Shown one piece after another: positions 19,937 through 50,669 of a stretch of 64,000 bases of DNA (its first letter is position 1; every line of letters starts with the position of its first letter). Both the position numbers and the translations under genes were made by a program. This stretch comes from Amphiscolops sp. MND2022 (taxonomy: Eukaryota): assembly GCA_964187785.1 (NCBI GenBank), contig OZ076409.1:13332001-13396000 (forward strand), written 5' to 3'. Under the pieces are notes generated by a model. That model was not told the origin of the DNA. It saw only the letters and a list, made by a program, of their open reading frames with translations, and made no database searches.

Positions 19937-20634
19937 ATGGCTTCTTTAAACCAAATCGAATGGAATATTAGGTCAATTAGACCTAATAAAGTGCCGGGCT
20001 CACCTTCACTCGGGTTTTTTCCAAATGAAAGATGCAATGACAGTTCTCCATTGAAAAGAAATTGTTACCTTTTCGATTGCCAGAAGTGTTCAACATCTCT
20101 AGCTTTGAAGGCCTTCGACCCTGCTTACGAACGAGGCTTGCAATGCGTACCAAGAATTTCATCTATACCCAAACCCGAAGTTTTCGAAGAAGTTAATAAG
20201 TATCACGGAGAAGTGGAAGAGCTCTATTTTAAGTATTTTGCCCAGCTATCTGACTTCGCGAACGTTGCAATCAATGGTTGGAGCAATTTAGATGCTGTTA
20301 AGGTGTTCAAAAATGTTGATAGAACATTTGAAGAAAATAAAATTTTTGAGAAAACAAAAGTTTTTGAATTGGATTGGCTCATCTTTAATGGACACTCGAT
20401 TACATTTGTTGAATTGAAGGAGAAAAGTGAAAGAGCAAAGTCTGGAGCTAACAAGAATTTCGAATGAAAAATCGATCAAATTAGAAAAGACGGAATTATC
20501 ATCGAACGACTCATGAATGCTGTTCGTTTGGATGTCAAAGTGAATTATTTTATCGCCTGTCCGAATGTTTCGATTAGCGAGATTGCACAAGGGTCCTTTC
20601 TTCGTGCACATCAAAAATTACTACACACTATCGT
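19937..20634 (+). pseudogene. Exon 1, copy 1: NERD-like PD-(D/E)XK nuclease domain with one in-frame TGA (codon 177)
   Basis: FELDWLIF..HSITFVELK, then TGA at 20465-20467. The frame stays open as KIDQIRKD..YFIACPNV up to a GTAAGT donor at 20635 (phase 2). Confidence 0.65.
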
Positions 20635-20929
20635 GTAAGTGCGTCAATTTCATTAATATGCATCTCGTTTTGGCTGAAATCACGGAGAAATGAAAATATC
20701 CGAAGATACTACGATATTTTGCGTCTCCGTGAAAAAATTGTATTTTGGACATTATGCAAAGCACAAGTTATCAGATTGTCCATTTATTATTTCTAAAATG
20801 AAGCTGTTTTGCTATGTAATTTTTTGAAAAAACTGAATTTCAGTATACTTAACGAAAGTAAAGAGTGGATTTATTTTAGTGGTTGTTTCTTCCTCCTGAA
20901 TATTGGTTTTCCTGTTTTTTTTTAAATCC

Positions 20930-22642
20930 GTGTTATTGTTTGTGCTCTAGTCGGTGGTTTTTATGTCAGAGGCAGAACCATAGTAATAGTAGGGCTTTTG
21001 CGGAGATCCGCTAGGGGCTTCTCACCCGTTACAGTCACTCAATCACGTGGTAGGTGAGTTTCCTTTCTAGCTGCCTCCGATTTTTCTCTTGCATGTCAGT
21101 GGATTGAGGTATAGCACAGGACACGCGATACTATGCCTCATCCACCAATGCTGTTATCTCATCTTTCTTCTGGTAGCTTTATTTTGGGTGCTTGGTGAAT
21201 CAAGACAAAGCACACGACCCGTGATACTTTGCCTAGTTCCACTTGTCCCGGCAATTGCTTCTAGTACAGTCGCACCCAATTCTCCATAAGCAGGAAAGAT
21301 TTTCATCGAAGTTTGCATTTTCCAAAAAATTTGGAGTAACTGGTGTTTCAGTTTTTTCTGGTCGCAATTCAAGATCTCCAGCTTCAAGGTGTTTTTATTC
21401 TCGTGGTTCTATAAAAGAAAGCCTGCTGTAATTGGGATTTGCTGGGTCTTTCCGATTTGAACTTCAACTCTCCGCGAACAGAGAAAATCATACCCGGTAG
21501 TCTCGAATCATCAACGTGGTAGTGACCTTGTATCAGTTTTGAAAGCATGAGGACGTCGTTCAGTTGTAGATACATCGTCAACGGTAAAAGTTTGAGTTTG
21601 TACAAGGCTTCTTTATACGAGAAATTTTCCCCCAAAATCCATTGAACAATTCTTTGTCAGCTTTCCAGTTGCCTGGAGACAAACATAGAAAGTCCAAAAC
21701 AACAGCTAGCATAAAGAACTCTTGGGACAATCATGCTTTTGTAGAGACCTAGTTTCGACCGATAGGGAAGGTTTGAGACAATACGCTTGATCATATAAAA
21801 CAAATTTTGAATCCTTTCGAACAAGCATTATCGATGTGACGGTTCCATTTCAAGTCCTTCTGTACAATTAATCCGAGATCCTTTCCCCAGCATTTGTTAT
21901 TAACAGCGTCGTTTTCTAGACAGAAGGTCTCGATATCACCCTCGAAAGTTGAATGAGAGCAATTGTCCAAATTCGAAGACAATTTGTTGTCTTGTGTCCA
22001 TGTGAAAACTTCATCCAGCTCTGATTGGTAAATATTTGCATTCAGTCCTATCCTCAAAAGTTTAGTATTGTCAGCGAATAGGAGAGGGGTAATATTTTCA
22101 CAACATGAAGGCAAATCGTTTATGTATATGAGGAACATTAAAGGACCAACTAAAGATCCCTGTGGTACACCACTTTCGACTCTTTTTCGGGGACAGGCTT
22201 TCGTTAACGCGGACCCTTTGTGACCTTCCGGAGAGGTAACTGCGGAGCAGTCTCAGGAGTCTTCCGTCAATATGAAACTGGTGAATTTTTCGATGCAAAA
22301 TTCCGTGATCAACTTGGTCGAAGGCTTTGCTGAAATCGGTTAGCACAATATCTACGTCCAAATTGTTCTCCAACCCTTGGTAAAATTTTTGGAGCATCAA
22401 CAGTTGTAGTACTGTTAATTGGCCAGGCATAAAACCATATTGAGTTTTTTGTAGATAGGGTCTAACTTGAAGAAACAGACGAGTGAACAAAATTCGCTCG
22501 AAATTTTTTGATGGTATGCAAAGTAAACTTGTCTGTAGTTTTAGGCGTTTAGTTTACTCCCTTTCTTGTACAATGGACTCACAATGGCTTCTTTCCAAAC
22601 TGAAGGAAAGGTTTAGGTTAGGAACACTTTTTTGAAAATCTG
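20930..22642 (-). mobile_element. CR1-like LINE C, 3' part (copy ~28990-30701)
   Basis: QYGFMPG, DFSKAFDQVDH, FLIYINDL, LFAD(N/D)TKL and KDLGLIVQKDLKWNRHI; frameshifted. Confidence 0.85.
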
Positions 22643-22685
22643 GAATAAACTTTTCTAATTCATCTTCATGGAGACATGTCTCTTT

Positions 22686-24256
22686 GAATAAACTTTTCTA
22701 ATTCATCGTCATGGAGACCTATTTCACCTACATCCCACTGAGGAAAAGTTGTTGAACGAGTGATAGATAGAAGACTAAGATCACCGGATATCCTCGACAT
22801 TGATGAGCAACAATTTCGTTTTCAGCCAGGTAAGTCAACTTTGCACTACTTATACAAATTATATCATGATATCTTAGCAATGAAAAAATTACCAATAGCG
22901 ACAGTATATGATCTAGAGAAAGCTTTTGATTCCGTATATCAAACTTTTTTGCTAAGCAAGCTAATAAACAGTGGTTTAAAAGGTCCAATTTTAGCCACTA
23001 TGAAATCTTTTTTTTATCGAATCGGAAAGTCAGTATCCAAGTCAATGATTATATAGACATGTCATTTGTCCCTCTTAATGGCTTACTTCAGGGGGCTGTA
23101 CTGTCACCACTTTTGTTTATATTTTATTTGAAGGGCTTCCTCCAAGATGCGGACGTAACATATAAGTATGCGGATGACAGTACTTCCTTTTCAAGCAAAG
23201 AAAACTTAAGCACATCTTTAGAAAAGGTGGAAAACTATACATACAAATGGAGGCAGGTGCTGATTAAACACAAAACTGGACATATAAATTTCTCAAAAGA
23301 AGTATTTCAGTCCGACTATTAATTTGTTGAGAGGAGTAAAACACTGGACCCATGGTTTGAGCGAGATTTGAGTTTCAAAACACATGCGGCCATTAACTCT
23401 GCCCCAATGGTTAATTTCTGGAAAGAAACTAGTATACTTATAACGCAAAGAATAAAACCATTTTACGCTGTATGTATCTCTGATTCATATGTGAGACCAC
23501 GTGTGACGTACTGTATGACTACTTGGTTTCATCAAAATATGACATTTCTGGACAAGATGTGGTGGAGTGTTCATAAATCTATCTTTGGGATACGAAACTA
23601 CCAAGTATCGAAACACGTAGTTAGTGTTTTAAGTAGTATTTGGCCTCCTTCTCTACTCTACACTCATCAAGTATTAATGTTTCTACACACGACTGCTCGA
23701 AGTGCAGATATTCTAAACCCAGGCAATTTAGCAATCATACCCCAACATGTTAATATGGTGAGACTATTTTTGGTACACAAACTTTCAATTGTAAATCGTG
23801 ATCCTGATGAAATTAGGGCAATATACATACAATATGCTAGACAATCTTCAGTCAGTACTTTTAAGAAGGAGGTGGATGAGTATTGCAGGCACTTATGGCA
23901 ACGAGAAATAAAGCAAGGTCTTATGTACTCAAATTACTCAGGGCTTTAAGTAAGAAACATTATCATGAAAATGCTTGCACCATATGCTAGGAAAATATTG
24001 TCAAAACGCTACGTGTTCTAATGAATGATTTTGAAGTACGCGAAGTATTTTTCAGAAGTAAAAAGAGCAAAATCGATGTTTGTCCCTATTGTAGAGTTGT
24101 CAATGATACTGCACATTTCTTATTTTCATGTGTCTCATACCAAGAACACCGAAAGAGTTTCATTAGGGAGCTTAAAAATCAAAAAATTGAGGAAACGCTA
24201 GTTGGTTTGCTAAATTGCGAAAACAAGCATGTTATAAGCACGTTGGCTGGCTTTAT
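22686..24256 (+). mobile_element. LINE A 3' part, unit 2 (unit 3 copy ~30745-32312)
   Basis: ORFs 22760-23949 and 24021-24266 duplicate 15106-16610 with extra lesions. Confidence 0.85.
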
Positions 24257-26964
24257 GGGAACATGACGTTTTGGCAAGAAAAAAACTTTTTCATGCCGAA
24301 ACGTCGCGTATTATCTTGGTTTTGTTTTTGGTTTTCTACAAACTGGACCTAACCAGTTTTTAGAACTCTGGAATTTTGTAGAAAAACGATAAGACCACTA
24401 ATGTAGGAATGATGCAAAGCATAGAACGTGCCTTGGATGCCCCCATTTCCTCTAGTGCCCCGCGGCCCCTCGGGGCCTCTTATATTCCCATCTTGCTAAG
24501 CGAGGTCGAACAGGAGCAAAGACCTAGCGGGAACCGAGATCGCGAAGCGATCGTAGTGGGAGCTGGTCTTTGCGACGGTGACGGCGAGCATGCATACACC
24601 GGATATGCCCCACATATCATACGAAACGTTTCGGCGAATGTTTTTAGCCTGAGACGTTTCTGCATGTTTTTTCTACACTGCACTACTCTTCATTTGCTAT
24701 ATCGCAGAAATGCTTACAAAGACCACAGGTATCAAGTTCAAGTACGCAGATGATTCACAAATACTTGTGTCCGCTTCTGTGGAAAGCGCTCTCCATCGAA
24801 TTTTATAGAGGAATTTCAACATCGTCGAAAAATGGTGCAGGACATGGAGAATTCAGATAAATGGTTCCAAAACGGAAATAATCAACAGAAACTCCGATGA
24901 ACTGACGACTTTTGTCTTCACACTGGGAAATGAAGCATGCAAAATTAAAAGTGAAATTAAAATTCTTGGCTTGATTGTCGAAAATACTTGCAATTTCAAG
25001 GATCACACGGAACTGGTGGTAGCCCGTTGCAAGAACAAATTGCGAGAGCTACGGATTCATTGTACTAGTAGATGGTGTCTGTCCCGGAACACACTTATTA
25101 CTTTTTAAAAAACGCTGATCCTACCAAATCTACTGTACTGTGCGCCTGTTTGGTCGAACCATAATGCGGCAAAACCGAAAACCTTCCAAGCTTTTCTCAA
25201 TCGAAGTATACTCCAAACCAGGTTTAATCCAAACGAGAGTGCTGCTGAAGTCATACTGGGCACCCCACCTATCGATATTGTTTGCCAAAATATATCCGCT
25301 AAGTTCCTCACCAAAGTACTACAGCAGAAAGACCTTTTATCAGAGCTATTTATAAAAAATGAAGAACCGTAACTTTTGTGACTATCCACAGAAACATACT
25401 GAAAACTTTCTACAACAAAAAGAGCCTTGACTTAACTGACCCCTTGAGCTACACTGAAGCCATTAGTCGAACCCATATACTGCGACAATGGATTTCCTGA
25501 TGGCAATACCCAGACTTTGAAACTAACTTTTAAAAAATTGTTCCTCAAATACACACTGACCCCGCCTTGATAAAACTTTCTTTACAGAAGGAACTCCTGA
25601 GGACCGCCATCGAAGTACTCCTGGACATCAATCCATCCCTGAAAAATTTTCCCTATAATAGAAGCTTGACTGCCAGTCCGATGTGCTCCTGTCGCATAAT
25701 TGAAGAAACTGCCACTCACTTTCTATTCGATTGCCGGAATTATCTTACAAGAAATCTGTCCACAAGAAACATCAACTTGTATGACAAAAATAACTGTATT
25801 GAACTGATAGACTTTATGAAAAAAGTGGAAGGTTTGAATACCTAAACAAATACCTTACAATTTGTTAAATTCTGACAAAATGACTACTGTTTGACATGTG
25901 ATAAACAATGCCCGCTCACCTGCCTTCCCTCTGTGTCAATTCAATTTGTACTATTTACTTTCTTCTGGAATCAATGATACAAAGTCATCTGTACTGCCAC
26001 ATCCCGAAGGTTAATTGATCTCTTCTCCTTCTTCTTCTTCTTCTTCTTGTCGACAGGCATGATAGTTGGTGCCGTAATGACACGGTTTTCAGCGACCTCT
26101 AATAAATGTTCTATTTACACCCCTTGATGCGGGCAATGTTAAGCACGTGATTTATCAAAAAATTTTATGGGTGAATAATGCCGCTGATTTATATCGTGTT
26201 TGTTAGTTATTTAGTTATTCAAATCTTCAGCAGTTTCTGATGAATTCTACTAGCTTCGCGCAGTTAGTCAGGTCATAGATGTTGAAGTTCTCGGTCGGAA
26301 GATTTCTCGGTTCCCATAATCTGTAACTGAAGAAAAAGTGAATTGCATTTTTTTCGGTTCTTTTACTTGAGCATAGAGGACTAGCTGTTAAGCTTCTGTT
26401 GTAGGCAAAATTTTCCAGTGAGGGGTTGATGTCCAGGAGTACTTCTATGACATGCCTCATGAGCTCTTTGGTTGTGGATATCTTGGTCAAAACGGGGTCG
26501 TTTGCTACTCGAGGGACAAGATGTTTGAGATTTGTACCGAAGTCCGGATATTGCCATCTATAATTCCATTGCCTAAGAATGTGATTTCTACTCGTTTCTT
26601 CATCGTAGCTTAGCTTGTCGCGTAGGTTTAATGTCTTTCCGCTGTAAAATTGTCTCAACGTATTTCTATGGCCAATAAGAAACGCTAAGTCTGATTCGTT
26701 TTCTATTATTTGATTTGTCAAATGATCATTAGTTTGTATAACTTTAGTTAAAAATTTCGATGATATGTTTTGGCACAGTATGTCTAGGGGTGGATTACCC
26801 AAAAGAACTTCAGCTGCTGCCGAGTTTGCATTGTATCTGGTTTCCACTATGCTGCGGGTAATCGCATGTTGAAATTTAGTTAATTTAGTGATGTTTTGAC
26901 TCGCACATACAGGTGTGCAGTATAGCAAGGCCGGTAGGATCAATGTTTTGTACATAACTGTAAG

Positions 26965-27446
26965 GGCGGTTGTCGTTTGGATCGAATGAATTTGCGCGAA
27001 TATGCAATCTGTCACTGAGATCGAAGTAAAATGGTCAAAGAAAATGAGATCGAATCTATGTTTTCAAATACCTAGCGTTTTCAAATAACAATGTTTTTGG
27101 CCCTCGGATATGCCCCCCATTTCCTCTAATGCCCCGCGGCCCCTTGGGCCGCTTATGTTCCCATCTTGCTAAGCGAGGTCGAACAGGAGCAAAGACCTAG
27201 CGGGAACGGAGATCGCGAAGCGATCGTAGTGGGAGCTGGTCCTTGCGACGGTGAGGGCGAGCGTGCATACACCGTATATGATCCCATATTAGGTGGGGAA
27301 AACTACCTAAATAATTTTAAACGCTTTTAAACACTTTACAGGATCAAAAACCTGGCGAAACCGGAAAAATTCGATCTCAAAACCTTCGATCCATTTTCGA
27401 TGTCGCTTTTCGCTCACACAAAAATTCGATCCAAAAATACCCCACC
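26965..27446 (+). mobile_element. Mutator-like MITE (482 bp) with 9-bp TSD
   Basis: AACTGTAAG is duplicated at 26956-26964 and 27447-27455. Imperfect TIRs GGCGGTTGTCGTTTGGATCGAAT / ATTCGATCCAAAAATACCCCACC. The empty site is present in unit 1 at 19313-19321. Confidence 0.9.
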
Positions 27447-27994
27447 AACTGTAAGGGTGTGTCTCGATAGACCCCATTTGCCTGTGCAAGATCTACGATC
27501 AAGCCGAGAATTTTCGTTTGGTATTTGACTTCACATTTCTCTGTTCCCAGATGAAGCTTGTGGTCCCAGATATCCAGTGGGTGAATGGGCATTATCTCGG
27601 TTTTAAATCCGTTTATTTAAATTCGCCATGTGTTGCACCATGTTTTCACCGAATTCAGCATTTCTGAATTTTGTCGCAGAGGGAGGCTTGTGTTTCTGCA
27701 GACACAAGGATCTGAGAATCGTCCGCATATTTGAATTTAGTCCCATCAGTATTCTTCAACATTGCTGCGATGAAAAATATGAAAAGCACCTTTAACATAA
27801 TGGAGGAATTCATTGTTTTCGGTTTGCGTTAATTCGGGTTTGCGCCAAAAAAAATATATTTAATATTTTTTAATTGCAAGCAAAGATTATTTTTCGCTGT
27901 CTTGCTAGAAAACTAGTTGAAATCTTCAGTGGAGTTACATCTTTAGCGACGTGTATGCCGAGGCGTGACCTCGATGTAATCCGCTCTGCGAAAA

Positions 27995-28692
27995 ATGGCT
28001 TCTTTAAACCAAATCGAATGGAATATTAGGTCAATTAGACCTAATAAAGTGCCGGGCTCACCTTCACTCGGGTTTTTTCCAAATGAAAGATGCAATGACA
28101 GTTCTCCATTGAAAGGAAATTGTTACCTTTTCGATTGCCAGAAGTGTTCAACATCTCTAGCTTTGAAGGCCTTCGACCCTGCTTACGAACGAGGCTTGCA
28201 ATGCGTACCAAGAATTTCATCTATACCCAAACCCGAAGTTTTCGAAGAAGTTAATAAGTATCACGGAGAAGTGGAAGAGCTCTATTTTAAGTATTTTGCC
28301 CAGCTATCTGACTTCGCGAACGTTGCAATCAATGGTTGGAGCAATTTAGATGCTGTTAAGGTGTTCAAAAATGTTGATAGAACATTTGAAGAAAATAAAA
28401 TTTTTGAGAAAACAAAAGTTTTTGAATTGGATTGGCTCATCTTTAATGGACACTCGATTACATTCGTTGAATTGAAGGAGAAAAGTGAAAGAGCAAAGTC
28501 TGGATCTAACAAGAATTTCGAATGAAAAATCGATGAAATTAGAAAAGACGGAATTATCATCGAACGACTCATGAATGCTGTTCGTTTGGATGTCAAAGTG
28601 AATTATTTTATCGCCTGTCCGAATGTTTCGATTAGCGAGATTGCACAAGGGTCCTTTCTTCATGCACATCAAAAATTACTACACACTATCGT
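27995..28692 (+). pseudogene. Exon 1, copy 2: NERD-like nuclease domain with the same in-frame TGA
   Basis: Near-identical to 19937-20634, with TGA at 28523-28525 and GTAAGT donor at 28693. Confidence 0.65.
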
Positions 28693-31600
28693 GTAAGTGC
28701 GTCAATTTCATTAATATGCATCTCGTTTTGGCTGAAATCACGGAGAAATGAAAATATCCGAAGATACTACGATATTTTGCGTCTCCGTGAAAAAATTGTA
28801 TTTTGGACATTATGCAAAGCACAAGTTATCAGATTGTCCATTTATTATTTCTAAAATGAAGCTGTTTTGCTATGTAATTTTTTGAAAAAATTGAATTTCA
28901 GTATACTTAACGAAAGTAAAGAGTGGATTTATTTTAGTGGTTGTTTCTTCCTCCTGAATATTGGTTTTCCTGTTTTTTTTTTAAATCCGTGTTATTGTTT
29001 GTGCTCTAGTCGGTGGTTTTTATGTCAGAGGCAGAACCATAGTAATAGTAGGGCTTTTGCGGAGATCCGCTAGGGGCTTCTCACCCGTTACAGTCACTCA
29101 ATCACGTGGTAGGTGAGTTTCCTTTCTAGCTGCCTCCGATTTTTCTCTTGCATGTCAGTGGATTGAGGTATAGCACAGGACACGCGATACTATGCCTCAT
29201 CCACCAATGCTGTTATCTCATCTTTCTTCTGGTAGCTTTATTTTGGGTGCTTGGTGAATCAAGACAAAGCACACGACCCGTGATACTTTGCCTAGTTCCA
29301 CTTGTCCCGGCAATTGCTTCTAGTACAGTCGCACCCAATTCTCCATAAGCAGGAAAGATTTTCATCGAAGTTTGCATTTTCCAAAAAATTTGGAGTAACT
29401 GGTGTTTCAGTTTTTTCTGGTCGCAATTCAAGATCTCCAGCTTCAAGGTGTTTTTATTCTCGTGGTTCTATAAAAGAAAGCCTGCTGTAATTGGGATTTG
29501 CTGGGTCTTTCCGATTTGAACTTCAACTCTCCGCGGACAGAGAAAATCATACCCGGTAGTCTCGAATCATCAACGTGGTAGTGACCTTGTATCAGTTTTG
29601 AAAGCATGAGGACGTCGTTCAGTTGTAGATACATCGTCAACGGTAAAAGTTTGAGTTTGTACAAGGCTTCTTTATACGAGAAATTTTCCCCCAAAATCCA
29701 TTGAACAATTCTTTGTAAGCTTTCCAGTTGCCTGGAGACAAACATAGAAAGTCCAAAACAACAGCTAGCATAAAGAACTCTTGGGACAATCATGCTTTTG
29801 TAGAGACCTAGTTTCGACCGATAGGGAATGTTTGAGACAATACGCTTGATCATATAAAACAAATTTTGAATCCTTTCGAACAAGCATTATCGATGTGACG
29901 GTTCCATTTCAAGTCCTTCTGTACAATTAGTCCGAGATCCTTTTCCCAGCATTTGTTATTAACAGCGTCGTTTTCCAGATAGAAGGTCTCGATATCACCC
30001 TCGAAAGTTGAATGAGAGCAATTGTCCAAATTCGAATGCAATTTGTTGTCTTGTGTCCATGTGGAAACTTCATCCAGCTCCAATTGGTAAATATTTGCAT
30101 TCAGTCCTATCCTCAAAAGTTTAGTATTGTCAGCGAATAGGAGAGGGGTAATATTTTCACAACATGAAGGCAAATCATTTATGTATATGAGGAACATTAA
30201 AGGACCAACTAAAGATCCCTGTGGTACACCACTTTCGACTCTTTTTCGGGGACAGGCTTTCGTTAACGCGGACCCTTTGTGACCTTCCGGAGAGGTAACT
30301 GCGGAGCAGTCTCAGGAGTCTTCCGTCAATATGAAACTGGTGAATTTTTCGATGCAAAATTCCGTGATCAACTTGGTCGAAGGCTTTGCTGAAATCGGTT
30401 AGCACAATATCTACGTCCAAATTGTTCTCCAACCCTTGGTAAAATTTTTGGAGCATCAACAGTTGTAGTACTGTTAATTGGCCAGGCATAAAACCATATT
30501 GAGTTTTTTGTAGATAGGGTCTAACTTGAAGAAACAGACGAGTGAACAAAATTCGCTCGAAATTTTTTGATGGTATGCAAAGTAAACTTGTCTGTAGTTT
30601 TAGGCGTTTAGTTTACTCCCTTTCTTGTACAATGGACTCACAATGGCTTCTTTCCAAACTGAAGGAAAGGTTTAGGTTAGGAACACTTTTTTGAAAATCT
30701 GGAATAAACTTTTCTAATTCATCTTCATGGAGACATGTCTCTTTGAATAAACTTTTCTAATTCATCGTCATGGAGACCTATTTCACCTACATCCCACTGA
30801 GGAAAAGTTGTTGAACGAGTGATAGATAGAAGACTAAGATCACCGGATATCCTCGACATTGATGAGCAACAATTTCGTTTTCAGCCAGGTAAGTCAACTT
30901 TGCACTACTTATACAAATTATATCATGATATCTTAGCAATGAAAAAATTACCAATAGCGACAGTATATGATCTAGAGAAAGCTTTTGATTCCGTATATCA
31001 AACTTTATTGCTAAGCAAGCTAATAAACAGTGGTTTAAAAGGTCCAATTTTAGCCACTATGAAATCTTTTTTTATCGAATCGGAAAGTCAGTATCCAAGT
31101 CAATGATTATATAGACATGTCATTTGTCCCTCTTAATGGCTTACTTCAGGGGGCTGTACTGTCACCACTTTTGTTTATATTTTATTTGAAGGGCTTCCTC
31201 CAAGATGCGGACGTAACATATAAGTATGCGGATGACAGTACTTCCTTTTCAAGCAAAGAAAACTTAAGCACATCTTTAGAAAAGGTGGAAAACTATACAT
31301 ACAAATGGAGGCAGGTGCTGATTAAACACAAAACGACATATAAATTTCTCAAAAGAAGTATTTCAGTCCGACTATTAATTTGTTGAGAGGAGTAAAACAC
31401 TGGACCCATGGTTTGAGCGAGATTTGAGTTTCAAAACACATGCGGCCATTAACTCTGCCCCAATGGTTAATTTCTGGAAAGAAACTAGTATACTTATAAC
31501 GCAAAGAATAAAACCATTTTACGCTGTATGTATCTCTGATTCATATGTGAGACCACGTGTGACGTACTGTATGACTACTTGGTTTCATCAAAATATGACA

Positions 31601-34600
31601 TTTCTGGACAAGATGTGGTGGAGTGTTCATAAATCTATCTTTGGGATACGAAACTACCAAGTATCGAAACACGTAGTTAGTGTTTTAAGTAGTATTTGGC
31701 CTCCTTCTCTACTCTACACTCATCAAGTATTAATGTTTCTACACACGACTGCTCGAAGTGCAGATATTCTAAACCCAGGCAATTTAGCAATCATACCCCA
31801 ACATGTTAATATGGTGAGACTATTTTTGGTACACAAACTTTCAATTGTAAATCGTGATCCTGATGAAATTAGGGCAATATACATACAATATGCTAGACAA
31901 TCTTCAGTCAGTACTTTTAAGAAGGAGGTGGATGAGTATTGCAGGCACTTATGGCAACGAGAAATAAAGCAAGGTCTTATGTACTCAAATTACTCAGGGC
32001 TTTAAGTAAGAAACATTATCATGAAAATGCTTGCACCATATGCTAGGAAAATATTGTCAAAACGTTTCGTGTTCTAATGAATGATTTTGAAGTACGCGAA
32101 GTATTTTTCAGAAGTAAAAAGAGCAAAATCGATGTTTGTCCCTATTGTAGAGTTGTCAATGATACTGCACATTTCTTATTTTCATGTGTCTCATACCAAG
32201 AACACCGAAAGAGTTTCATTAGGGAGCTTAAAAATCAAAAAATTGAGGAAACGCTAGTTGGTTTGCTAAATTGCGAAAACAAGCATGTTATAAGCACGTT
32301 GGCTGGCTTTATGGGAACATGACGTTTTGGCAAGAAAAAAACTTTTTCATGCCGAAACGTCGCGTATTATCTTGGTTTTGTTTTTGGTTTTCTACAAACT
32401 GGACCTAACCAGTTTTTAGAACTCTGGAATTTTGTAGAAAAACGATAAGACCACTAATGTAGGAATGATGCAAAGCATAGAACGTGCCTTGGATGCCCCC
32501 ATTTCCTCTAGTGCCCCGCGGCCCCTCGGGGCCTCTTATATTCCCATCTTGCTAAGCGAGGTCGAACAGGAGCAAAGACCTAGCGGGAACCGAGATCGCG
32601 AAGCGATCGTAGTGGGAGCTGGTCTTTGCGACGGTGACGGCGAGCATGCATACACCGGATATGCCCCACATATCATACGAAACGTTTCGGCGAATGTTTT
32701 TAGCCTGAGACGTTTCTGCATGTTTTTTCTACACTGCACTACTCTTCATTTGCTATATCGCAGAAATGCTTACAAAGACGACAGGTATCAAGTTCAAGTA
32801 CGCAGATGATTCACAAATACTTGTGTCCGCTTCTGTGGAAAGCGCTCTCCATCGAATTTTATAGAGGAATTTCAACATCGTCGAAAAATGGTGCAGGACA
32901 TGGAGAATTCAGATAAATGGTTCCAAAACGGAAATAATCAACAGAAACTCCGATGAACTGACGACTTTTGTCTTCACACTGGGAAATGAAGCATGCAAAA
33001 TTAAAAGTGAAATTAAAATTCTTGGCTTGATTGTCGAAAATACTTGCAATTTCAAGGATCACACGGAACTGGTGGTAGCCCGTTGCAAGAACAAATTGCC
33101 AGAGCTACGGATTCATTGTACTAGTAGATGGTGTCTGTCCCGGAACACACTTATTACTTTTTAAAAAACGCTGATCCTACCAAATCTACTGTACTGTTCG
33201 CCTGTTTGGTCGAACCATAATGCGGCAAAACCGAAAACCTTCCAAGCTTTTCTCAATCGAAGTATACTCCAAACCAGGTTTAATCCAAACGAGAGTGCTG
33301 CTGAAGTCATACTGGGCACCCCACCTATCGATATTGTTTGCCAAAATAAATCCGCTAAGTTCCTCACCAAAGTACTACAGCAGAAAGACCTTTTATCAGA
33401 GCTATTTATAAAAAATGAAGGAACCGTAACTTTTGTGACTATCCACAGAAACATACTGAAAACTTTCTACAACAAAAAGAGCCTTGACTTAACTGACCCC
33501 TTGAGCTACACTGAAGCCATTAGTCGAACCCATATACTGCGACAATGGATTTCCTGATGGCAATACCCAGACTTTGAAACTAAGTTTTAAAAAATTGTTC
33601 CTCAAATACACACTGACCCCGCCTTGATAAAACTTTCTTTACAGAAGGAACTCCTGAGGACCGCCATCGAAGTACTCCTGGACATCAATCCATCCCTGAA
33701 AAATTTTCCCTATAATAGAAGCTTGACTGCCAGTCCGATGTGCTCCTGTCGCATAATTGAAGAAACTGCCACTCACTTTCTATTCGATTGCCGGAATTAT
33801 CTTACAAGAAATCTGTCCACAAGAAACATCAACTTGTATGACAAAAATAACTGTATTGAACTGATAGACTTTATGAAAAAAAGTGGAAGGTTTGAATACC
33901 TAAACAAATACCTTACAATTTGTTAAATTCTGACAAAATGACTACTATTTGACATGTGATAAACAATGCCCGCTCACCTGCCTTCCCTCTGTGTCAATTC
34001 AATTTGTACTATTTACTTTCTTCTGGAATCAATGATACAAAGTCATCTGTACTGCCACATCCCGAAGGTTAATTGATCTCTTCTCCTTCTTCTTCTTCTT
34101 CTTCTTCTTGTCGACAGGCATGATAGTTGGTGCCGTAATGACACGGTTTTCAGCGACCTCTAATAAATGTTCTATTTACACCCCTTGATGCGGGCAATGT
34201 TGAGCACGTGATTTATCAAAAACTTTTATGGGTGAATAATGCCGCTGATTTATATCGTGATTGTTAGTTATTTAGTTAATCAAATCTTCAGCAGTTTCTG
34301 ATGAATTCTACTAGCTTCGCGCAGTTAGTCAGGTCATAGATGTTGAAGTTCTCGGTCGGAAGATTTCTCGGTTCCCATAATCTGTAACTGAAGAAAAAGT
34401 GAATTGCATTTTTTTCGGTTCTTTTACTTGAGCATAGAGGACTAGCTGTTAAGCTTCTGTTGTAGGCAAAATTTTCCAGTGAGGGGTTGATGTCCAGGAG
34501 TACTTCTATGACATGCCTCATGAGCTCTTTGGTTGTGGATATCTTGGTCAAAACGGGGTCGTTTTCTACTCGAGGGACAAGATGTTTGAGATTTGTACCG

Positions 34601-35507: not shown

Positions 35508-36056
35508 AACTGTAAGGGTGTGTCTCGATAGACCCCATTTGCCTGTGCAAGATCTACGATCAAGCCGAGAATTTTCGTTTGGTATTTGACTTCACATTTC
35601 TCTGTTCCCAGATGAAGCTTGTGGTCCCAGATATCCAGTGGGTGAATGGGCATTATCTCGGTTTTAAATCCGTTTATTTAAATTCGCCATGTGTTGCACC
35701 ATGTTTTCACCGAATTCAGCATTTCTGAATTTTGTCGCAGAGGGAGGCTTGTGTTTCTGCAGACACAAAGATCTGAGAATCGTCCGCATATTTGAATTTA
35801 GTCCCATCAGTATTCTTCAACATTTCTGCGATGAAAAATATGAAAAGCACCTTTAACATAATGGAGGAATTCATTGTTTTCGGTTTGCGTTAATTCGGGT
35901 TTGCGCCAAAAAAAAATATATTCAATATTTTTTAATTGCAAGCAAAGATTATTTTTCGCTGTCTTGCTAGAAAGCTAGTTGAAATCTTCCGTGGAGTTAC
36001 ATCTTTAGCGACGTGTATGCCGAGGCGTGACCTCGATGTAATCCGCTCTGCGAAAA

Positions 36057-36737
36057 ATGGCTTCTTTAAACCAAATCGAATGGAATATTAGGTCAATTAG
36101 ACCTAATAAAGTGCCGGGCTCACCTTCACTCGGGTTTTTTCCAAATGAAAGATGCAATGACAGTTCTCCATTGAAAGGAAATTGTTACCTTTTCGATTGC
36201 CAGAAGTGTTCAACATCTCTAGCTTTGAAGGCCTTCGACCCTGCTTACGAACGAGGCTTGCAATGCGTACCAAGAATTTCATCTATACCCAAACCCGAAG
36301 TTTTCGAAGAAGATAATAAGTATCACGGAGAAGTGGAAGAGCTCTATTTTAAGTATTTTGCCCAGCTATCTGACTTCACGAACGTTGCACTCAATGGTTG
36401 GAGCAATTTAGATGCTGTTGAGGTGTTCAAAAATGTTGATAGAACATTTGAATAAAATAAAATTTTTGAGAAAACAAAAGTTTTTGAATTGGATTGGCTC
36501 ATCTTTAATGGACACTCGATTACAGTCGTAGAAGTGAAGGAGAAAAGTGAAAGAGCAAAGTCTGGATCGAACAAGAATTTCGAATGAAAAATCGATCAAA
36601 TTAGAAAAGACGGAATTATCATCGAACGACTCATGAATGCTGTTCGTTTGGATGTCAAAGTGATATATTTTATCGCCTGTCCGAATAATAAAAGGGTCCT
36701 TTCTTCGTGCACATCAAAAATTACTACACACTATCGT
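36057..36737 (+). pseudogene. Exon 1, copy 3: NERD-like nuclease domain, most degraded
   Basis: Extra TAA at 36453-36455, the shared TGA and a net 17-nt deletion near 36685. Motif reads ELDWLIF..VVEVK; donor at 36738. Confidence 0.65.
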
Positions 36738-37034
36738 GTAAGTGCGTCAATTTCATTAATATGCATCTCGTTTTGGCTGAAATCACGGAGAAATGAAAAT
36801 ATCCGAAGATACTACGATATTTTGCGTCTCCGTGAAAAAATTGTATTTTGGACATTATGCAAAGCACAAGTTACCAGATTTTCCATTTATTATTTCTAAA
36901 ATGAAGCTGTTTTGCTATGTAATTTTTTTGAAATAACTGAATTTTAGTATACTTAACGAAAGTAAAGAGTGGATTTATTTTAGTGGTTGTTTCTTCCTCC
37001 TGAATATTGGTTTTCCTGTTTTTTTTTAAATCCG

Positions 37035-39985
37035 TGTTTTTGTTTGTGCTCTAGTCCGTGGTTTTTATGTCAGATGCAGAACCATAGTAATAGTAGGGCT
37101 TTTGCGGAGATCCGCAAGGGGCTTCTCAACCGTCACAGTCACTCAATCACGTGGTAGGTGAGTTTCCTTTCTAGCTGCCTCCGGTTTTTCTCTTGCAAGT
37201 CAGTGGATTGAGGTATTGCACAGGACACGCGATACTATGCCTCATCCACCAATGCTGTCATCTCATCTTTCTTCTGGTAGCTTTGTTTTGGGTGCTTGGT
37301 GAATCAAGACAAAGCACACGACCCGTGATACTTTGCCTAGTTCCACTTGTCCCGGCATTTGCTTCTAGTACAGTCGCACCCAATTCTCCATGAGCAGGAA
37401 AGATTTTCATCGATGTTTGCATTTTCCAAAATAATTGCAGCAACTGGTGTTTCAGACTTTTCTGGTCGCAATTCAAGATCTCCAGCTTCAAGGTGCTCAC
37501 TATTCTCGTGGTTCTATAAAAGAAAGCCTGCTGTAATTGGGATTTGCTGGGTCTTTCCGATTTGAACTTCAACTCTCCGCGGACAGAGAAAATCATTCCC
37601 GCTAGTCTCAAATCATCAACATGGTAGTGACTTTGTATCTGTTTCGAAAGCATGAGGACGTCGTTCAGTTGTAGATACATCATCAACGGTAAAAGTTTGA
37701 GTTTGTACAAGGCTTCTTTGTACGAGAAATTTTCCCCCAAAATCTATTGAACGATTCTTTGTAAGCTTTCCAGTTGCCTGGAGACAAACATAGAAAGTCC
37801 AAAACAACAGCTAGCATAAAGAACTCTTGGGACAATCATGTTTTTGTAGAGATCTAGTTTCGACCGATAGGGAAGGTTTGAGACATTACGCTTGATCATA
37901 TAAAAAAAATTTGAATCCTTTCGAACAAGCATTATCGATGTGACGGTTCCATTTCAAGTCCTTCTGTACAATTAATCCGAGATCCTTTCCCCAGCATTTG
38001 TTATTAACAGCGTCGTTTTCTAGACAGAAGGTCTCGATATCACCCTCGAAAGTTGAATGAGAGCAATTGTCCAAATTCGAAGACAATTTGTTGTCTTGTG
38101 TCCATGTGAAAACTTCATCCAGCTCTGATTGGTAAATATTTGCATTCAGTCCTATCCTCAAAAGTTTAGTATCGTCAGCGAATAGGAGAGGGATAATATT
38201 TTCACAACATGAAGGCAAATCATTTATGTATATGAGGAACATTAAAGGACCAACTAAAGATCCCTGTGGTACACCACTTTCGACTCTTTTTCGGGGACAG
38301 GCTTTCGTTAACGCGGACCCTTTGTGACCTTCCGGAGAGGTAACTGTGGAGCAGTCTCAGGAGTCTTCCGTCAATATGAAACTGGTGAATTTTTCGATCC
38401 AAAATTCCGTGATCAACTTGGTCGAAGGCTTTGCTGAAATCGGTTAGCACAATGTCTACGTCCAAATTGTTCTCCAACCCGTGGTAAAATTTCTGGAGCA
38501 TCAACAGTTGTAGTACTGTGGATCGGCCGGGCATAAAACCATATGGAGCTTTATGTAGATAGGGTCTAACTTGAAGAAACAGACGAGTGAACAAAATTCG
38601 CTCGAAATTTTTTGATGGTATGCAAAGTAAACTTGTCTGTAGTTTTAGGCGTTCAGTTTACTCCCTTTCTTGTACAATGGACTCACAATGGCTTCTTTCC
38701 AAACTGAAGGAAAGGTTTAGGTTAGGAACATTTTTTTGAATATCTGGAAAAGCGATGCTGAGATGTGGTCACACGTATTTGGCTATAAATGTTTGATATC
38801 TCCTGCCTCGTGAACTTGACGTTTTCAAACTTGGGATAAAACATTTTGTCATAGAGTCGAGCGGTCAGGCAAAAGCGTTTAAATAAAGATTTTATTTTAT
38901 GCTACTGGTGTTAGTGAGTAGCTCTCGAAACAGTGAAAGCTATCAACAAATCTCAGTCAAAACAACTTATCAAACAACACGTTTCCAAATACGGTATCTC
39001 TTGTGCTGGTTAAATATTCAAATTCAGTTTGATTGAATAATGTCAACGACATTACACATTTCTTGAGAAATTGGTTCGTCGAACTTTGAGGATGTTTTAT
39101 ACGTTGAAGCGAAGAAGTCGGCAAATAGTCTGACTTTTCCCGCGTCTGATTGAGCCTCGTCCTTTACTCATTTCAATTTAGACAGTATTTTTTGAAAGCT
39201 TTGGAATACTTGAAGAGATTCGCTGGAGACCTTGTAGCTGCTAGTTGGCTTCCATATCGAGTTTTGTCTTCTTGCGCCGTTGCGTAGGACTGAATGAGTA
39301 ATTCTTGGACTGATGGATGAGTCTCGTGGTATCTTTTCCGCTTTGTTTTCAAACGTTTCAGTGTGTGCGATGTCTCGCGCGATATCCATGGTAATAGGGA
39401 TGATCGATGTTTCGTTCTCGGCACCGAGTCTTCCAAAGTTTCCTCGAACCAAATATACCAGTTGTCCAATACAACATCTACAGTTGACCAGCAGTAGGAG
39501 TCGAAGGGCGTTTGCTCCATCAGATTTCTGATATTATCAAAGTCGGCATTGCAAAAGCTATAAACCTCATTTCCGGGAGTTTTCCTCATGTAAACTTCTT
39601 CAATAGCAGCGAAAGTGGAAACGATTGGAGTGTGTGAGGACAGATTACAAACAATCTCGTGATCGCGAAGTGGTTCTAAGACTACATCGCAGTTGTTTCT
39701 GGAAACCAACATAAGATCCGAAATGCCAGTGGCAGATGTTTCGAAGTCGATTTTTTGTTGCTGATTCAGATCAGCGATGTTCTCTAGGAACATTTTTTCT
39801 CGACCAGTTCCATGTTCGATGGTATTCCACTTATTTTGATCAAGTTTTAAATCGCCAAACACAATGAGTTCATCGTGAGTTTTCCGTTGTTTCTTTAAAA
39901 ATAAGAATAGTTGTTCAAAGTCATCTATAGCAAAGTGTACTTACTGTCGTGTGGAGGTGAGTAAACGCAAACAATACACAGAAAA
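37035..39985 (-). mobile_element. CR1-like LINE C, longest copy (APE + RT)
   Basis: APE motifs VYSPP, GDLK, DLMLVS and SSH.PI (39173-39862) followed by RT fragments (38594-37258). Confidence 0.85.
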
Positions 39986-42461: not shown

Positions 42462-42998
42462 TTTTTAGTCGGCGCATTTTAGTAGAAAATGTGCCCGACT
42501 CTTACAGTGGGTAGTCTTTTTTACCACTTTTTTGTTCATTTGTTCAACAACGTCAAACCTCAACAACTTCAAACCTCAACAACTCCAACCTTAGAAGCGC
42601 GTCAAAACGAAAAGAAAAACAAAACAGACGTCCAGAACCTCAAAAACACTTTAAGAATCCCCACATAGCCCCACTTTTTTTCGGCACTATGAGACTTTTT
42701 GAAATTTTTTGGATTGCACCAAAGGGTCACCCCTTCATTTGTTTCGATATTTTGCAACACAATGGATGTCGAAAAATTGCAAAGGGTCCCCCTTTTACAT
42801 TTTTCGGCACTGTGACACTGTTCAAAAATCTCATTTTAAAAAATTTTTTGGGAAATTTTTTCATGTCCCCAAAAGGTCCCCCCTTCAATTTTTTTTTCAT
42901 TTTTTGCAGCCAGCTGGAGTTTCACAAAGCCCGAAGGGTCCCCCTTTTCAATTTTGAGCCTTAGATATGGCGCCGACTTTGGCCGTTCTCGGCTTGTT
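42462..42998 (+). mobile_element. HINE-like element (clearest copy)
   Basis: 5' TTTTT-AGTCGGCGCATTTT...AAAATGTGCCCGACT (subTIR with adjacent inverted repeat); internal AAGGGTCCCCC repeats; 3' subTIR GCGCCGACT followed by hairpin GCCGTTCTCGGC and TTGTT. No TSD. Confidence 0.8.
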
Positions 42999-47137: not shown

Positions 47138-47394
47138 GTCAAGCGGAAATACAGTTGGGTTCATATCCATGGAATGCATGGGTAAAGGCAAAGCGTATAT
47201 CTATGAAGGGTGCTCAAAACAGTTGCGTTTGTGTGATTTCGCTGAAGTAACTCGGCGACAATTAATGAATGCTGCTGAAAATGACTTTGATGAACCTTGG
47301 TCTGCAGAATATAAACATGCTACCTCGTTGGTTGTGATATCGATGCTCCTTATTGGTGACACGGTTGAAAATGTTGACAACCACCCACTCTTTG
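47138..47394 (+). CDS. Predicted exon 2 (linker) of the nuclease-helicase gene
   Basis: Acceptor TTTGTTTTCGTAG (phase 2, matching the exon-1 donors), open frame SSGNTVGFISMEC...HPLF, and donor GTAAGA (phase 1, matching the acceptor at 48456). Confidence 0.6.
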
Positions 47395-48003
47395 GTAAGA
47401 ATAATTCTTACGATTCATTTCAAACAAAGCTTTATTGGAAATCTACGATATGTAAATTGAATGAATGGAACCAACTTTGCAAATTTCCGCTTTATTTTTA
47501 GTCACGTCTTGAACTCTTGAGAAATAAATCTAATGAAACAAGTTACGTGAAAATTCGCAGGTCTTGTTCCCTCGATTCATATAACTTTCAGGCTAATTGG
47601 CTAAGGTGAAAGGAGCTCAATTCGTCAAAAACAAATTTTGCCCTGTTAAAATTTTGCCGTCGCAGAAAAAACTATCGGTAAGGTTTTTGACGGCAACCGT
47701 AACTTACACCATGGTTATTTATGACGTGGAGTTTTTTTTCAAAAATATTGAACGCTCCACGTAATGTGCTTCGAGATATAACGCTCAAATTTCAGTGCGA
47801 ATCGTTGCAAAAGCGCTCGCTACGCTCGCCTAAAAACGATTGAGAAGAAAGGTTTTTCTAAAACTCTGCTTTTCAGCCAGGAACCTTTTGGCTGACATTC
47901 TCCCTCTCTGGCAAGCAATCAATTGTCAAGAAAAAAGTTTCCTCGGCCACCTGCCAAAGCATTTTGCCTCTAGTTCTGTTTTCCAATTTATCAGTTTAAA
48001 AGG

Positions 48004-48388
48004 GGCCGAGAACGGCCAAAGTCGGCGCTATATCTAAGGCTAAAAATTGTGAAAGGGGGAACCCTTTGGGATTTTTTGACATCCATAGTGTTGCAAAATA
48101 TCGAAAGAAATGAAGGGGGACCCTTTGGTGCAATCCAAAAAATTTCAAAAAGTCGCATAGTGCAGAAAAAAGTGGGGCTAAGGTGGGATCCTTAGTGTGT
48201 TTTCGAGGTTCTGGACGTGTTTTGTTTTTCTTTTCGGTTTGGACGCGCTTCTGAGGTTCGAGTGTTTTGAACCTCCATAGTTCAAGTTGTTGAACAAATG
48301 AACAAAAAAAGTGGACCCTTCGTGTCTTAAAAAAACTACCCACTGTAATAGTCGGGCACATTTTCTACTAAAATGCGTCGACTAAAAA
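48004..48388 (-). mobile_element. HINE-like element (same subfamily as 42462-42998)
   Basis: GGCCGAGAACGGCCAAAGTCGGCGC ... AGTCGGGCACATTTTCTACTAAAATGCGTCGACTAAAAA. Confidence 0.8.
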
Positions 48389-48456
48389 CGTGTGTTTTGA
48401 AACATTGAGCTTGTAGAAATTGGAGCTTAGTTGTTTGATCTAATTTTTTATTCCAG

Positions 48457-50669
48457 GTCCCCCCACTTTTCATCTGAAGCAGAGAAGCGAAAGAAAATGC
48501 CAAATCATGCCGACCATCTTGAGAAGCCATTTTCCCGAATGTTTGGTTTTGGGACCGGAGCAGTTGGAAGCCATTCGATTCAAAGGAAATAGAATTCTAC
48601 TCATAGGGGAAGTGGGCTGTGGCAAATCCCTTGTTCTTTTAGCACTTCTTTATAAATATACTGCCAAGTGTTTGAGTTTGTTGGAAAGCCCGAAATACTT
48701 CAACGTGGTGTTTGTAATTCCCGAGCAAAAGACTGAATTTCGAATATATGTGGAAAAGTTCATTCAAGAACATTGCAACTCTCGCTACATCAGAATAGAG
48801 AGCTCAATTTGGAGGGTTCAGAACTACAGGGACGTGGATTTGATTCTCATTGATGAATTGTATTCTTGCATAGCCGATTTCGATTCTCTTAGCAGTATAA
48901 AAATTTCCAGAAAAATTAAAATTTGTGCCGCTGTTGTAACAATGTATTTTGACATGGCACAACCTCTGGTAAAACCCACATTCTATAATGAATGGACACT
49001 TTTCTACTTGCGCAATTCATACAGAAGCCCAGTAAACATATCATTACGATGTGCTAAGGTTAGAAGAACTTGCATGCCTTGGAATCCTCATTATTCAGAT
49101 CAATCATTTGATTTAACTCTCGCAATGACCTTGAACAATGGTACCAATGTAAATGATGACCGCTCTGTTCAAGTGTACAAGTACGGAAGTGAAATTGACT
49201 TCCCGCCAAAAATTTTCCCGAATGAAACAAGGTTGCTGGTTGCGTTTGGATTGGATACGAAGATGCAACAATGCTTATGTGATGTCCAAACAGACTTTTC
49301 AGCTGTTGAAACCATAAAGTACCATCGTACCGCTAAAGCTACTCTTGAAGGAGATCTCACGTTCACAGGGTCTGAGTATCAAACAGTTATCATTATTCTT
49401 GGGCGTTTGCCACCTAATTTTGACAAAGAATTTCTCGGCATTGTTCTCTACCACACCATAAGCCGCTCTTTGGATCGATTGTTTATACTTTGCCACGAAG
49501 CTGATGAAGATTTTATGAGCAAGTTGATGAAGCTTGACACGATTGACTTCTGTGTTTTTCAAAAGTTGCAGAAAAAACAAGACGTTGCTGTGGATGACTT
49601 CGAGTTAGTCCGAAGTGAAGAAGAGAAAAAAGATGTCTTGAGAATCCTTCTTTTGACCAGAAATCATGGTCAGTTCTCGAAGATGCTGCATGTTTTCGAG
49701 GCTAGTCCTGATATCTCAGCTTTTGTTGAGAATAAACTGATGAGGTATTTTCCTCTAGGTGAAAAGGGTGAAATAATGCTTATGCTTAGAGATTTTATGA
49801 AGAACCGTCGTTCCATTTCACAGGAGGAATTTATCCTATCCTTCATAAATTCTGCGGAATTTCTCACAACGCTGGATCAATTGTCAGTGCGGAGAAATAT
49901 ACTTCGCGACTTTAAAAAGTTGTTGGCTAAAAATATTGACCAGCTCGATTTTGATATTGGAAAAGTAGATATTTGCAGAGTGGCAAGAGCGTGTATTATT
50001 TGGGGTGACGAGGAAATCTTTTTACATGCCGCAGTAGTTGTGAAAAACTTCGTTGCCTCAGTATCCTCGCAATTGATTCAATTGGCTGATGAAGCCTTAC
50101 CTGGCCATTTAAAACCCTTGTTCAGTCAGCTGCTCCAAGGCGAGGAAGCAGGGCTTGAGGAAATTCGAGAACTATTCCAGAAATATTCTGTTACAGGAAA
50201 AGGCGATAAATTAATGTTCGAGTGGTCTGAAATGACAGATATGTTTCTGCATTTTTGCACAATCGATTTTTTACGAGGTACAAGTTTATGCTTAGAGAGT
50301 GAGCCAATTTTCCTGTTGCTCCAAGCTGAATTGAAACAGTTGATTCTGGGCAATAGAGAGAGAATCAAAGTTCCACCAGCTGTTATTGTTCCCTCAATGG
50401 GCCCTCGCGATTTCGAAATATGGCACAACTTAGATCAGCATTTCAGCGTTTGGCATTCCGTTGACTCCACTAGCGAAGCCGTTCGAGCAATTGATGGATT
50501 GCTGAAAGCAGCTAACTGTACTATTGAAACTCACAATGAGATCCAAAGATTACCTCAAAGTTCCGAAAGGAATCCGCTTAAAGTAGTTTTATACTACACT
50601 ATATACTCAGTAATCTTCTTTTGGTCTACCCTATTTTTGAGGAAGTTATTCCGATTCCCAAAAAAGTGA
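48457..50669 (+). CDS. Terminal exon: SF1 helicase-like P-loop NTPase (Schlafen/DUF2075-UvrD_C-like) + helical region + C-terminal hydrophobic tail
   Basis: An intact 720-aa ORF that stays open upstream to acceptor TTTTTTATTCCAG. Motifs: Q motif LGPEQ, Walker A GEVGCGKS, Walker B LILIDE, LRNSYRS, FTGSEYQTVIII and LYHTISRSLDRL. Ends VVLYYTIYSVIFFWSTLFLRKLFRFPKK. Confidence 0.85.

Follow-up and report, generated by a model that had tools for sequence, protein, structure and literature searches.

A nuclease-helicase gene family in an animal genome, with a member probably disabled by a premature stop in its amplified nuclease exon

The locus and the question

Can three open reading frames (ORFs) that lie far apart in one stretch of Amphiscolops sp. 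MND2022 DNA be the exons of a single gene and, if so, can that gene still make its protein? The stretch, called the window here, comprises 64,000 nucleotides (nt) at C1:13332001-13396000 of a 1.07-Gb assembly and is eukaryotic DNA of about 40% G+C. An earlier note on this DNA had joined the three ORFs into a gene for a NERD-like nuclease fused to a superfamily 1 (SF1) helicase with a hydrophobic tail. Paralogs from the same genome argue for such a gene, and its nuclease exon, present in the window in three copies, carries the same in-frame stop codon in each. The preferred reading, to which we give a probability of about 0.7, is that the locus is a pseudogenising member of a nuclease-helicase family in birth-and-death turnover.

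Gene model

The model consists of the following exons, with exon 1 given in the first of its three copies:

19937-20634, plus strand: exon 1 (copy 1), 698 nt, ATG at 19937, ending in phase 2 at the donor GTAAGT
47138-47394, plus strand: exon 2, 257 nt, pyrimidine-rich acceptor ...ttttcgtag/G, donor G/gtaaga
48457-50669, plus strand: exon 3, 2,213 nt, acceptor ...ttattccag/GT, stop TGA

Together the exons measure 3,168 nt, and their phases are compatible (exon 1 leaves in phase 2; exon 2 enters in phase 2 and leaves in phase 1). When the sequence was re-read, the coordinates, the GT and AG sites and the phases given in the earlier note were all found as claimed. Exon 2 forms an 85-codon linker between the nuclease exon and the helicase exon; it matches no family in Pfam, and homologues of it occur at 13 further loci of the genome.

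Conservation of the exon order in paralogs

Six-frame searches of the organism's own 1.07-Gb genome returned 52 matches that resemble exon 3, 33 that resemble exon 1 and 14 that resemble exon 2. An exon 3 match lies downstream on the same strand, at a distance of at most 60 kb, for 27 of the 33 exon 1 matches, and 13 of the 33 are followed by exon 2 and then exon 3, ten of these series being outside the window; exon 3 also lies downstream of 11 of the 14 exon 2 matches. By our own arithmetic from the genome match counts, about 0.05 pairs of exon 1 and exon 3 are expected by chance, and the observed linkage is far above that level. The distance from exon 1 to exon 2 ranges from 0.8 to 41 kb among the paralogs, so the 10-26 kb separating them in the window is unexceptional.

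The intron phases are conserved as well. Each of the six assessed paralogs outside the window has an exon 1 frame that runs up to a GT in phase 2, a count that leaves aside three minus-strand loci. A single base separates the reading frame from the AG upstream and from the GT downstream at all ten exon 2 loci. For exon 3 the offset from the AG is two bases; this register is clear at nine of 12 loci, possible at one more and unclear at the remaining two. Because nothing would maintain complementary phases between separate genes, the single-gene model is accepted, and the three scattered ORFs are very probably exons of one gene. Collinearity and phase conservation thus bear out the proposal that the ORFs represent one type of gene, and the many paralog loci that link a NERD-like exon 1 to a helicase exon 3 run contrary to the outcome (no paralog joining the two domains) that had been named as telling against it.

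A transposon or virus gene was considered as a source of these copies and, judged by sequence identity and introns, is unlikely. The paralogs are 25-52% identical to one another, their intron positions are conserved and their introns vary in length from 0.8 to 41 kb; this pattern fits an old host gene family and does not fit a recently active element.

Two further arrangements were observed among the paralogs. Between positions 58382909 and 58467535 of C6, members of the family form mirror-image pairs (exon 1 at 58405290 on the minus strand and 58426159 on the plus strand; exon 3 at 58399284, minus, and 58450797, plus, and again at 58382909, minus, and 58467302, plus), which suggests an inverted segmental duplication of the whole gene. 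In a subfamily marked by 'VPWTIKR' (L016 on C253 and L023 on C187), the ORF homologous to exon 1 has no ATG ahead of the start of the conserved domain, and this subfamily probably carries an extra upstream coding exon.

Exon 1 and the NERD-type nuclease domain

The nuclease motifs of exon 1, read from the sequence of copy 1, are:

20204-20212, plus strand: HGE
20366-20377, plus strand: ELDW
20408-20425, plus strand: VELKEK
20474-20491, plus strand: DQIRKD

The signature of PD-(D/E)XK nucleases comprises an acidic residue in the first helix, an aspartate at strand 2 and E-x-K at strand 3. The motifs E-x-D, E-x-K and Q reported earlier are indeed found in exon 1, as HGE, E-L-D-W, E-L-K and Q. 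The residues kept are E92 (HGE), D146 (ELDW), E159 and K161 (ELK) and Q181, and they are present in copies 1 and 2. In an alignment of 31 sequences of the exon 1 family, the D of 'FEIDW' is invariant, and three residues are nearly so: the glutamates of 'HGE' and 'E-V-K' and the downstream Q. The K of E-x-K is retained in the subfamily of this genome only; the other sequences have E-x-G, E-x-S or E-x-E at this site.

NERD (Pfam PF08378; gathering score 22.1 bits) belongs to the PD-(D/E)XK clan and is matched by 22 of the 31 family members at E ≤ 10, with a best E-value of 6.1e-6. Three paralogs pass the gathering score, namely L017 (24.6 bits), L019 (23.3 bits) and L020 (22.9 bits), and a NERD scan of the genome in six frames places four exon 1 paralog loci above the cut-off. 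Over its full length, the window's exon 1 shares 45-52% identity with nine paralogs. Judged from these family relationships, exon 1 is a divergent NERD (PD-(D/E)XK) domain, in keeping with the NERD-like character first claimed for it. The N-terminus of exon 1 is rich in cysteine, and four conserved cysteines that precede the NERD domain are predicted to be possible zinc ligands.

The domain appears to be narrowly distributed and to be called only as a lone ORF, since a profile of exon 1 run against 1.84 billion representative proteins gave 46 matches, of which 45 are no longer than 312 amino acids (aa). The sole longer match (633 aa, repetitive) looks spurious. The nearest entry in the ESM Atlas is a cluster of 240-aa 'hypothetical protein' sequences labelled Cnidaria (0.90), followed by a bacterial NERD cluster (0.87). 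A sequence-only search of the PDB with the exon 1 profile returned nothing meaningful (best E 0.33).

Exon 3, the helicase core and the C-terminal tail

The motifs of exon 3, likewise read from the sequence, are:

48606-48629, plus strand: Walker A, GEVGCGKS
48840-48857, plus strand: Walker B, LILIDE
49017-49031, plus strand: SYRSP
49362-49379, plus strand: FTGSEY
49455-49472, plus strand: TISRSL

The Walker residues G50, G53, G55, K56, D132 and E133 are invariant in all ten aligned exon 3 sequences; the window's exon 3 also has Y188, R189, F302, G304 and R336, which do not vary within the family. We take SYRSP, FTGSEY and TISRSL to correspond to SF1 motifs IV ('YRS'), V and VI (with its arginine), respectively. 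The exon is laid out as a helicase core at about residues 17-360, then a helical region and then a hydrophobic tail.

Ten sequences yielded an AlphaFold2 (AF2) model of exon 3 that is good over residues 20-420, with a predicted local distance difference test (pLDDT) score of about 80 in the core. It superposes on UvrD (2is6_A) with a VIA Z of 20.9 over 298 aligned residues and a root-mean-square deviation (rmsd) of 3.9; further VIA Z scores are 19.0 for Deinococcus radiodurans UvrD, 17.2 for SLFN14, 17.1 for SLFN11, 16.8 for PcrA and 16.7 for HelD. Foldseek relates the model to Dna2, nsp13 and a tobamovirus helicase with a probability of 1.00, and the ESM Atlas also places exon 3 with SF1 helicases. 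With its motifs intact and its predicted fold close to that of UvrD, exon 3 is modelled with confidence as encoding an SF1 helicase core of two RecA domains, as originally suggested.

Sequence profiles recover this relationship less clearly. No Pfam helicase model exceeds its gathering score in the window's exon 3 (AAA_22 reaches 21.7 bits against 27, and SLFN-g3_helicase an E of 0.1). Among exon 3 sequences of the paralogs, UvrD_C_2 is matched in four of ten (best E 4.7e-5) and Viral_helicase1 also in four of ten (best E 1.2e-4). A sequence-only PDB search with the exon 3 profile gave matches at the P-loop level only (Pif1-like chains at E 0.07, HelD at E 2.2), and a fold search of BFVD gave no specific match beyond generic viral SF1 helicases.

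The end of exon 3 encodes a further feature:

50583-50639, plus strand: hydrophobic tail, a 19-mer at exon 3 residues 709-727 of 736, mean Kyte-Doolittle value 1.77, followed by RKLFRFPKK and the stop

Tail anchors consist of one hydrophobic segment that lies no more than about 30 residues from the C-terminus. The 19-mer, with nine mostly basic residues behind it, has this form, and the AF2 model places a helix at residues 706-730 that overlaps it; the segment is a candidate tail anchor. The hydrophobic tail described earlier is therefore present, and it recurs in at least one paralog, L007, where it lies at the extreme C-terminus and is more hydrophobic (2.72). Another paralog, L008 (C2:71893643-71894788, minus strand, a 908-codon ORF), has ankyrin repeats (Ank_2, E 1.7e-14) behind the helicase, and its C-terminus is moderately hydrophobic. 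The tail of L007 and the ankyrin repeats of L008 indicate that the C-termini of the family are variable, with modules swapped.

Premature stop and amplification of exon 1

The three copies of exon 1 lie in a tandem array with an 8-kb period, the parts of which are:

15038-38749, unstranded: 8-kb tandem array, order B0-A1-B1-A2-B2-A3 (self-BLAST, repeat families D14-D20)
19434-22645, 27492-30704 and 35553-38749, unstranded: A units, which carry exon 1 (self-BLAST)
15038-19323, 22691-26966 and 30750-35027, unstranded: B units, reverse-transcriptase debris of a long interspersed nuclear element (LINE) (self-BLAST, RVT_1)
27995-28692, plus strand: exon 1 copy 2, phase 2, donor as in copy 1, TGA at 28523-28525
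36057-36737, plus strand: exon 1 copy 3, the most decayed, TAA at 36453-36455, TGA at 36585-36587, 681 nt, phase 0

An in-frame TGA at codon 177 is common to the three copies (20465-20467 in copy 1, 28523-28525 in copy 2 and 36585-36587 in copy 3). It falls between the E-x-K strand and the helix with the conserved Q, at a codon for which the aligned paralogs have R, A, T or K. Copy 3 has also suffered a 17-nt deletion near its 3' end, which reduces it to 681 nt and puts it out of phase with exon 2. Both the nonsense codon and the further decay of copy 3 can be read directly from the sequence. The stop is not the only departure from the family: 76 columns of exon 1 are invariant across the nine other paralogs and 61 remain so once the window's exon 1 is added, a loss that corresponds to at least 15 departures.

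Because the TGA is present in all three copies, a full-length nuclease-helicase cannot be made at this locus. The spliced model of the earlier note thus keeps its 3,168-nt length and its phases and loses its open frame, and the intact 1,055-aa product that it implied cannot be assembled from any copy of exon 1, all of which carry the stop. At most, the locus would yield a truncated peptide of 176 residues or, from an internal start, the helicase alone.

RVT_1 is matched at 15088-16293 (E 1e-19) and at 21791-22252 (E 1.2e-5). The A units differ by 0.81% (A1-A2) and 2.88% (A1-A3), and the B units by 3.51% (B0-B1) and 0.35% (B1-B2). The contrast between 0.35-0.81% for copies 1 and 2 and 2.9-3.8% to the outer copies points to two rounds of duplication, and most simply the shared TGA is older than both. 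The 8-kb unit with exon 1 was probably amplified by unequal crossing-over between the flanking LINE copies.

Status of the locus

Most likely, then, the locus is a decaying or N-terminally disabled member of the family. Several results weigh against this reading. Exon 3 is open over all 736 codons and keeps every invariant motif, and long neutral decay predicts otherwise. In a crude neutral simulation of an ORF the size of exon 3, with 1.0-1.7% change per lineage (set against the 2.88% divergence of A1 and A3), the frame was still open in 19-39% of runs under substitutions alone and in 1-6% of runs with an assumed 0.1 indels per substitution. Accordingly, the stop may be recent or owe its spread to gene conversion, or selection may still act on exons 2 and 3; in principle, the TGA could also be an assembly or consensus artefact copied over near-identical repeats. 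The two junctions, exon 1 to exon 2 and exon 2 to exon 3, are themselves deduced from splice-site sequence and phase. Read through with an X at the stop, copies 1 and 2 of the window's exon 1 match no Pfam family at E ≤ 10, and the portion ahead of the stop has no Pfam match either. Finally, the AF2 model of exon 1 from the paralog L016, built with nine close paralogs, is poor (pLDDT 43.8). The order of its secondary structure elements fits a PD-(D/E)XK core, and its VIA-wide neighbours are nearly all PD-(D/E)XK proteins, at Z scores of 5.0-7.2 that lie under the tool's caution line of 8; those named are XisH-like 2okf, Card1, AddAB, Can2, restriction enzymes, Hjc, SduA and HamA. These neighbours are consistent with a PD-(D/E)XK fold and are no proof of it.

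The alternative that survives best, although we regard it as unlikely, is that exons 2 and 3, or exon 3 alone from Met 48507, are expressed as a tail-anchored SF1 helicase without NERD, and that the exon 1 copies are dead relics in upstream or intronic sequence. The 736 open codons of exon 3, with all their family-invariant motifs, would be expected of such a gene. The simulated ORF, too, often failed to stay open under as much change as separates the exon 1 copies, but this result depends on the assumed indel rate and on a stop older than the duplications. A 720-aa ORF from Met 48507 is the form found in the protein collection (P0004); however, this 'QIMP' methionine is also conserved in paralogs that have exon 1 and is not necessarily a start. 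Some exon 3 loci, for example C10:50525443, have no exon 1 within 60 kb. Against a helicase-only gene, both exons have the look of internal ones: exon 3 opens at an AG acceptor that is conserved, as is the phase, and a conserved start is missing from exon 2.

It is less probable still, and in our estimate quite improbable, that exon 1 and exons 2-3 are separate neighbours, a small NERD protein and a helicase forming a conserved gene pair. ORF callers deliver the exon 1 domain as stand-alone proteins only (the 45 of 46 matches of at most 312 aa), the nearest ESM Atlas cluster is the 240-aa 'hypothetical protein', and no annotated long protein with exon 1 was found in the protein collections searched. 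Short matches are, however, what prokaryote-style ORF calling is expected to produce on DNA that contains introns. Two genes would also leave unexplained why exon 1 ORFs end at a homologous GT donor in phase 2 (6/6), complemented by exon 2 (10/10) and by exon 3 (9/12 clear), and why exon 2 lacks a start codon and is preceded by a polypyrimidine tract and AG. In a second NERD family of this genome, described below, a single ORF contains both NERD and a Walker A motif.

That a full-length protein is made, through readthrough or recoding of the TGA or because the stop is an assembly artefact, is hardly credible when the copies and paralogs are compared: the NERD catalytic residues are kept in copies 1 and 2 and exons 2 and 3 are intact, but the identical TGA occurs in three copies that are otherwise 0.8-2.9% divergent, copy 3 has gained a further stop and a deletion that shifts the frame, as an unprotected exon would, and the window's exon 1 departs at 15 or more positions that are invariant in nine other paralogs.

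Comparison with known nuclease-helicase systems

Fusions of NERD to a helicase occur in the defence islands of prokaryotes, and vertebrates have nuclease-helicase fusions of their own, the Schlafens of antiviral immunity. The family described here resembles the prokaryotic NERD-SF1 fusions (PADLOC C3a187 'NERD+UvrD'; the NERD-helicase partner of type I-G Tiamat) in placing NERD N-terminal to a UvrD-like SF1 helicase with two RecA domains. Unlike them, it is eukaryotic, split by introns and present in many copies. It also carries additional parts: a Cys-rich N-terminus, a linker exon of 85 aa, about 350 aa of helical C-terminal region and, in certain members, ankyrin repeats or a tail anchor. 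The similarity to PADLOC profiles is marginal, with C3a187 matched by one of ten members (E 0.0044) and Nhi by one of ten (E 7.3e-4). A preprint on Tiamat (10.64898/2026.09.30.754977) reports an enrichment of NERDs in the defence islands of prokaryotes and gives a model in which a NERD-helicase passes single-stranded DNA to a nuclease.

Like the long (group III) Schlafens SLFN11 and SLFN14, the family places its nuclease ahead of a compact SF1 helicase, and the two Schlafen helicases superpose on the exon 3 model with VIA Z scores of 17.1-17.2 over 286-288 residues (rmsd 3.9-4.1). PF09848 (SLFN-g3_helicase) is weakly matched in five of ten family members (best E 0.0024). Unlike in long Schlafens, the nuclease is of the NERD/PD-(D/E)XK type and not a Schlafen/AlbA_2 core: SLFN_AlbA_2 is not matched by the window's exon 1 and is matched weakly by one of 31 family members (E 8.4e-4), against 22 of 31 for NERD. 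The helicase core is also closer to UvrD (Z 20.9) than to the Schlafens (Z about 17). Since the nuclease differs and UvrD scores higher, the likeness to Schlafens is one of convergent architecture and not of membership. The comparison with Schlafens drawn at the outset thus stands for the shared nuclease-helicase architecture and, with NERD in place of the Schlafen/AlbA_2 core, is an analogy only.

The same genome contains a second family that combines NERD with a P-loop, represented by L039 (C2:87704956-87705285, minus strand) and L041 (C12:48900777-48901103, minus strand). Their NERD domains score 28.3-28.7 bits, over the Pfam cut-off, in ORFs of 432-517 codons, and a Walker A segment of the form 'Q...I...G-GKGSGKT' follows about 170 residues past NERD in the same ORF. 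L040 and L042, both on C11, also belong to this family, whose NERD scores of 28-30 bits are above the cut-off. When aligned with hhalign, its Walker A segment matches the start of exon 3 with a probability of 68.8% (E 4.5e-5, 34 columns), and an hhalign comparison of L041 with the exon 1 profile finds no similarity (probability 0.3). Unlike in the window's family, NERD and Walker A lie on one exon. The two modules are thus independently seen to be joined in this organism.

Other elements in the window

About six tandem units of 2.01-2.06 kb occupy positions 1900-12700. Over 300 nt, identity between alternate units is 100% (5697-5996 equals 9772-10071; 4579-4878 equals 8654-8953), which indicates a higher-order repeat of about 4.08 kb. 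One short ORF of this array (1914-2330) was searched and matched no Pfam family. ORFs with a recurring 'PKGPPF..FF'-like periodicity are found at 42515-42964, 47996-48364 (minus strand) and 59302-59772, one of them within the intron between exons 2 and 3; their appearance is that of a single short element, interspersed or internally repetitive, in several copies. Downstream of exon 3 the window contains:

50768-51349, strand n/a: 193-codon ORF that begins about 100 bp after the exon 3 stop
54404-54820, strand n/a: ORF resembling leucine-rich repeats (LRR_8, E 2e-4, under the cut-off)
57273-57863, strand n/a: fragment of a Tc1/mariner-type DDE_3 transposase (E 3.7e-10)

Family architecture and possible role

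The best explanation of the data as a whole is a lineage-restricted, much-duplicated family whose helicase is UvrD-like and Schlafen-group-3-like. In an intact member, exon 1 would supply a Cys-rich N-terminus and a NERD PD-(D/E)XK nuclease, exon 2 a linker of 85 residues and exon 3 a compact SF1 helicase with a helical C-terminal region; a hydrophobic tail anchor would be present in some members only. By analogy with prokaryotic NERD-helicases, intact members probably couple ATP-driven translocation on nucleic acid to nuclease cleavage, and some may act from a membrane surface.

This family architecture is real, and it is not described for eukaryotes in the literature searched: papers on NERD and nuclease-helicase proteins in eukaryotes and cnidarians describe no eukaryotic NERD-SF1 family, and the accessible portion of a HEPN survey (PMC3710099) contains nothing relevant to one. 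Scans of metagenome contigs with the exon 1 and exon 3 profiles confirmed no relative, and the ten homologs in a cluster look-up come from ENA assemblies only.

An immune role would fit the expansion, divergence, pseudogenes and variable C-termini of the family. More tentatively, and with more doubt than belief, the family (not the broken copy in the window) could be an unrecognised class of animal innate-immune effector that has a bacterial-defence architecture, dozens of loci in birth-and-death turnover and swappable C-termini (tail anchor, ankyrin), some members being tethered to an organelle or endoplasmic reticulum membrane, where they would meet replicating viral or transposon nucleic acids; the window would then present a nuclease exon amplified by LINE-mediated unequal crossing-over after it had been knocked out.

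The locus itself is of lesser weight, as a likely pseudogene that illustrates the amplification of LINE-flanked exons. ORF-level calling splits the family into pieces of about 240 aa and of 600-730 aa, which makes the fusion invisible in the protein collections searched. If the family holds, it would add a further case of nuclease-helicase architecture in eukaryotic conflict systems, from an early-branching type of animal genome.

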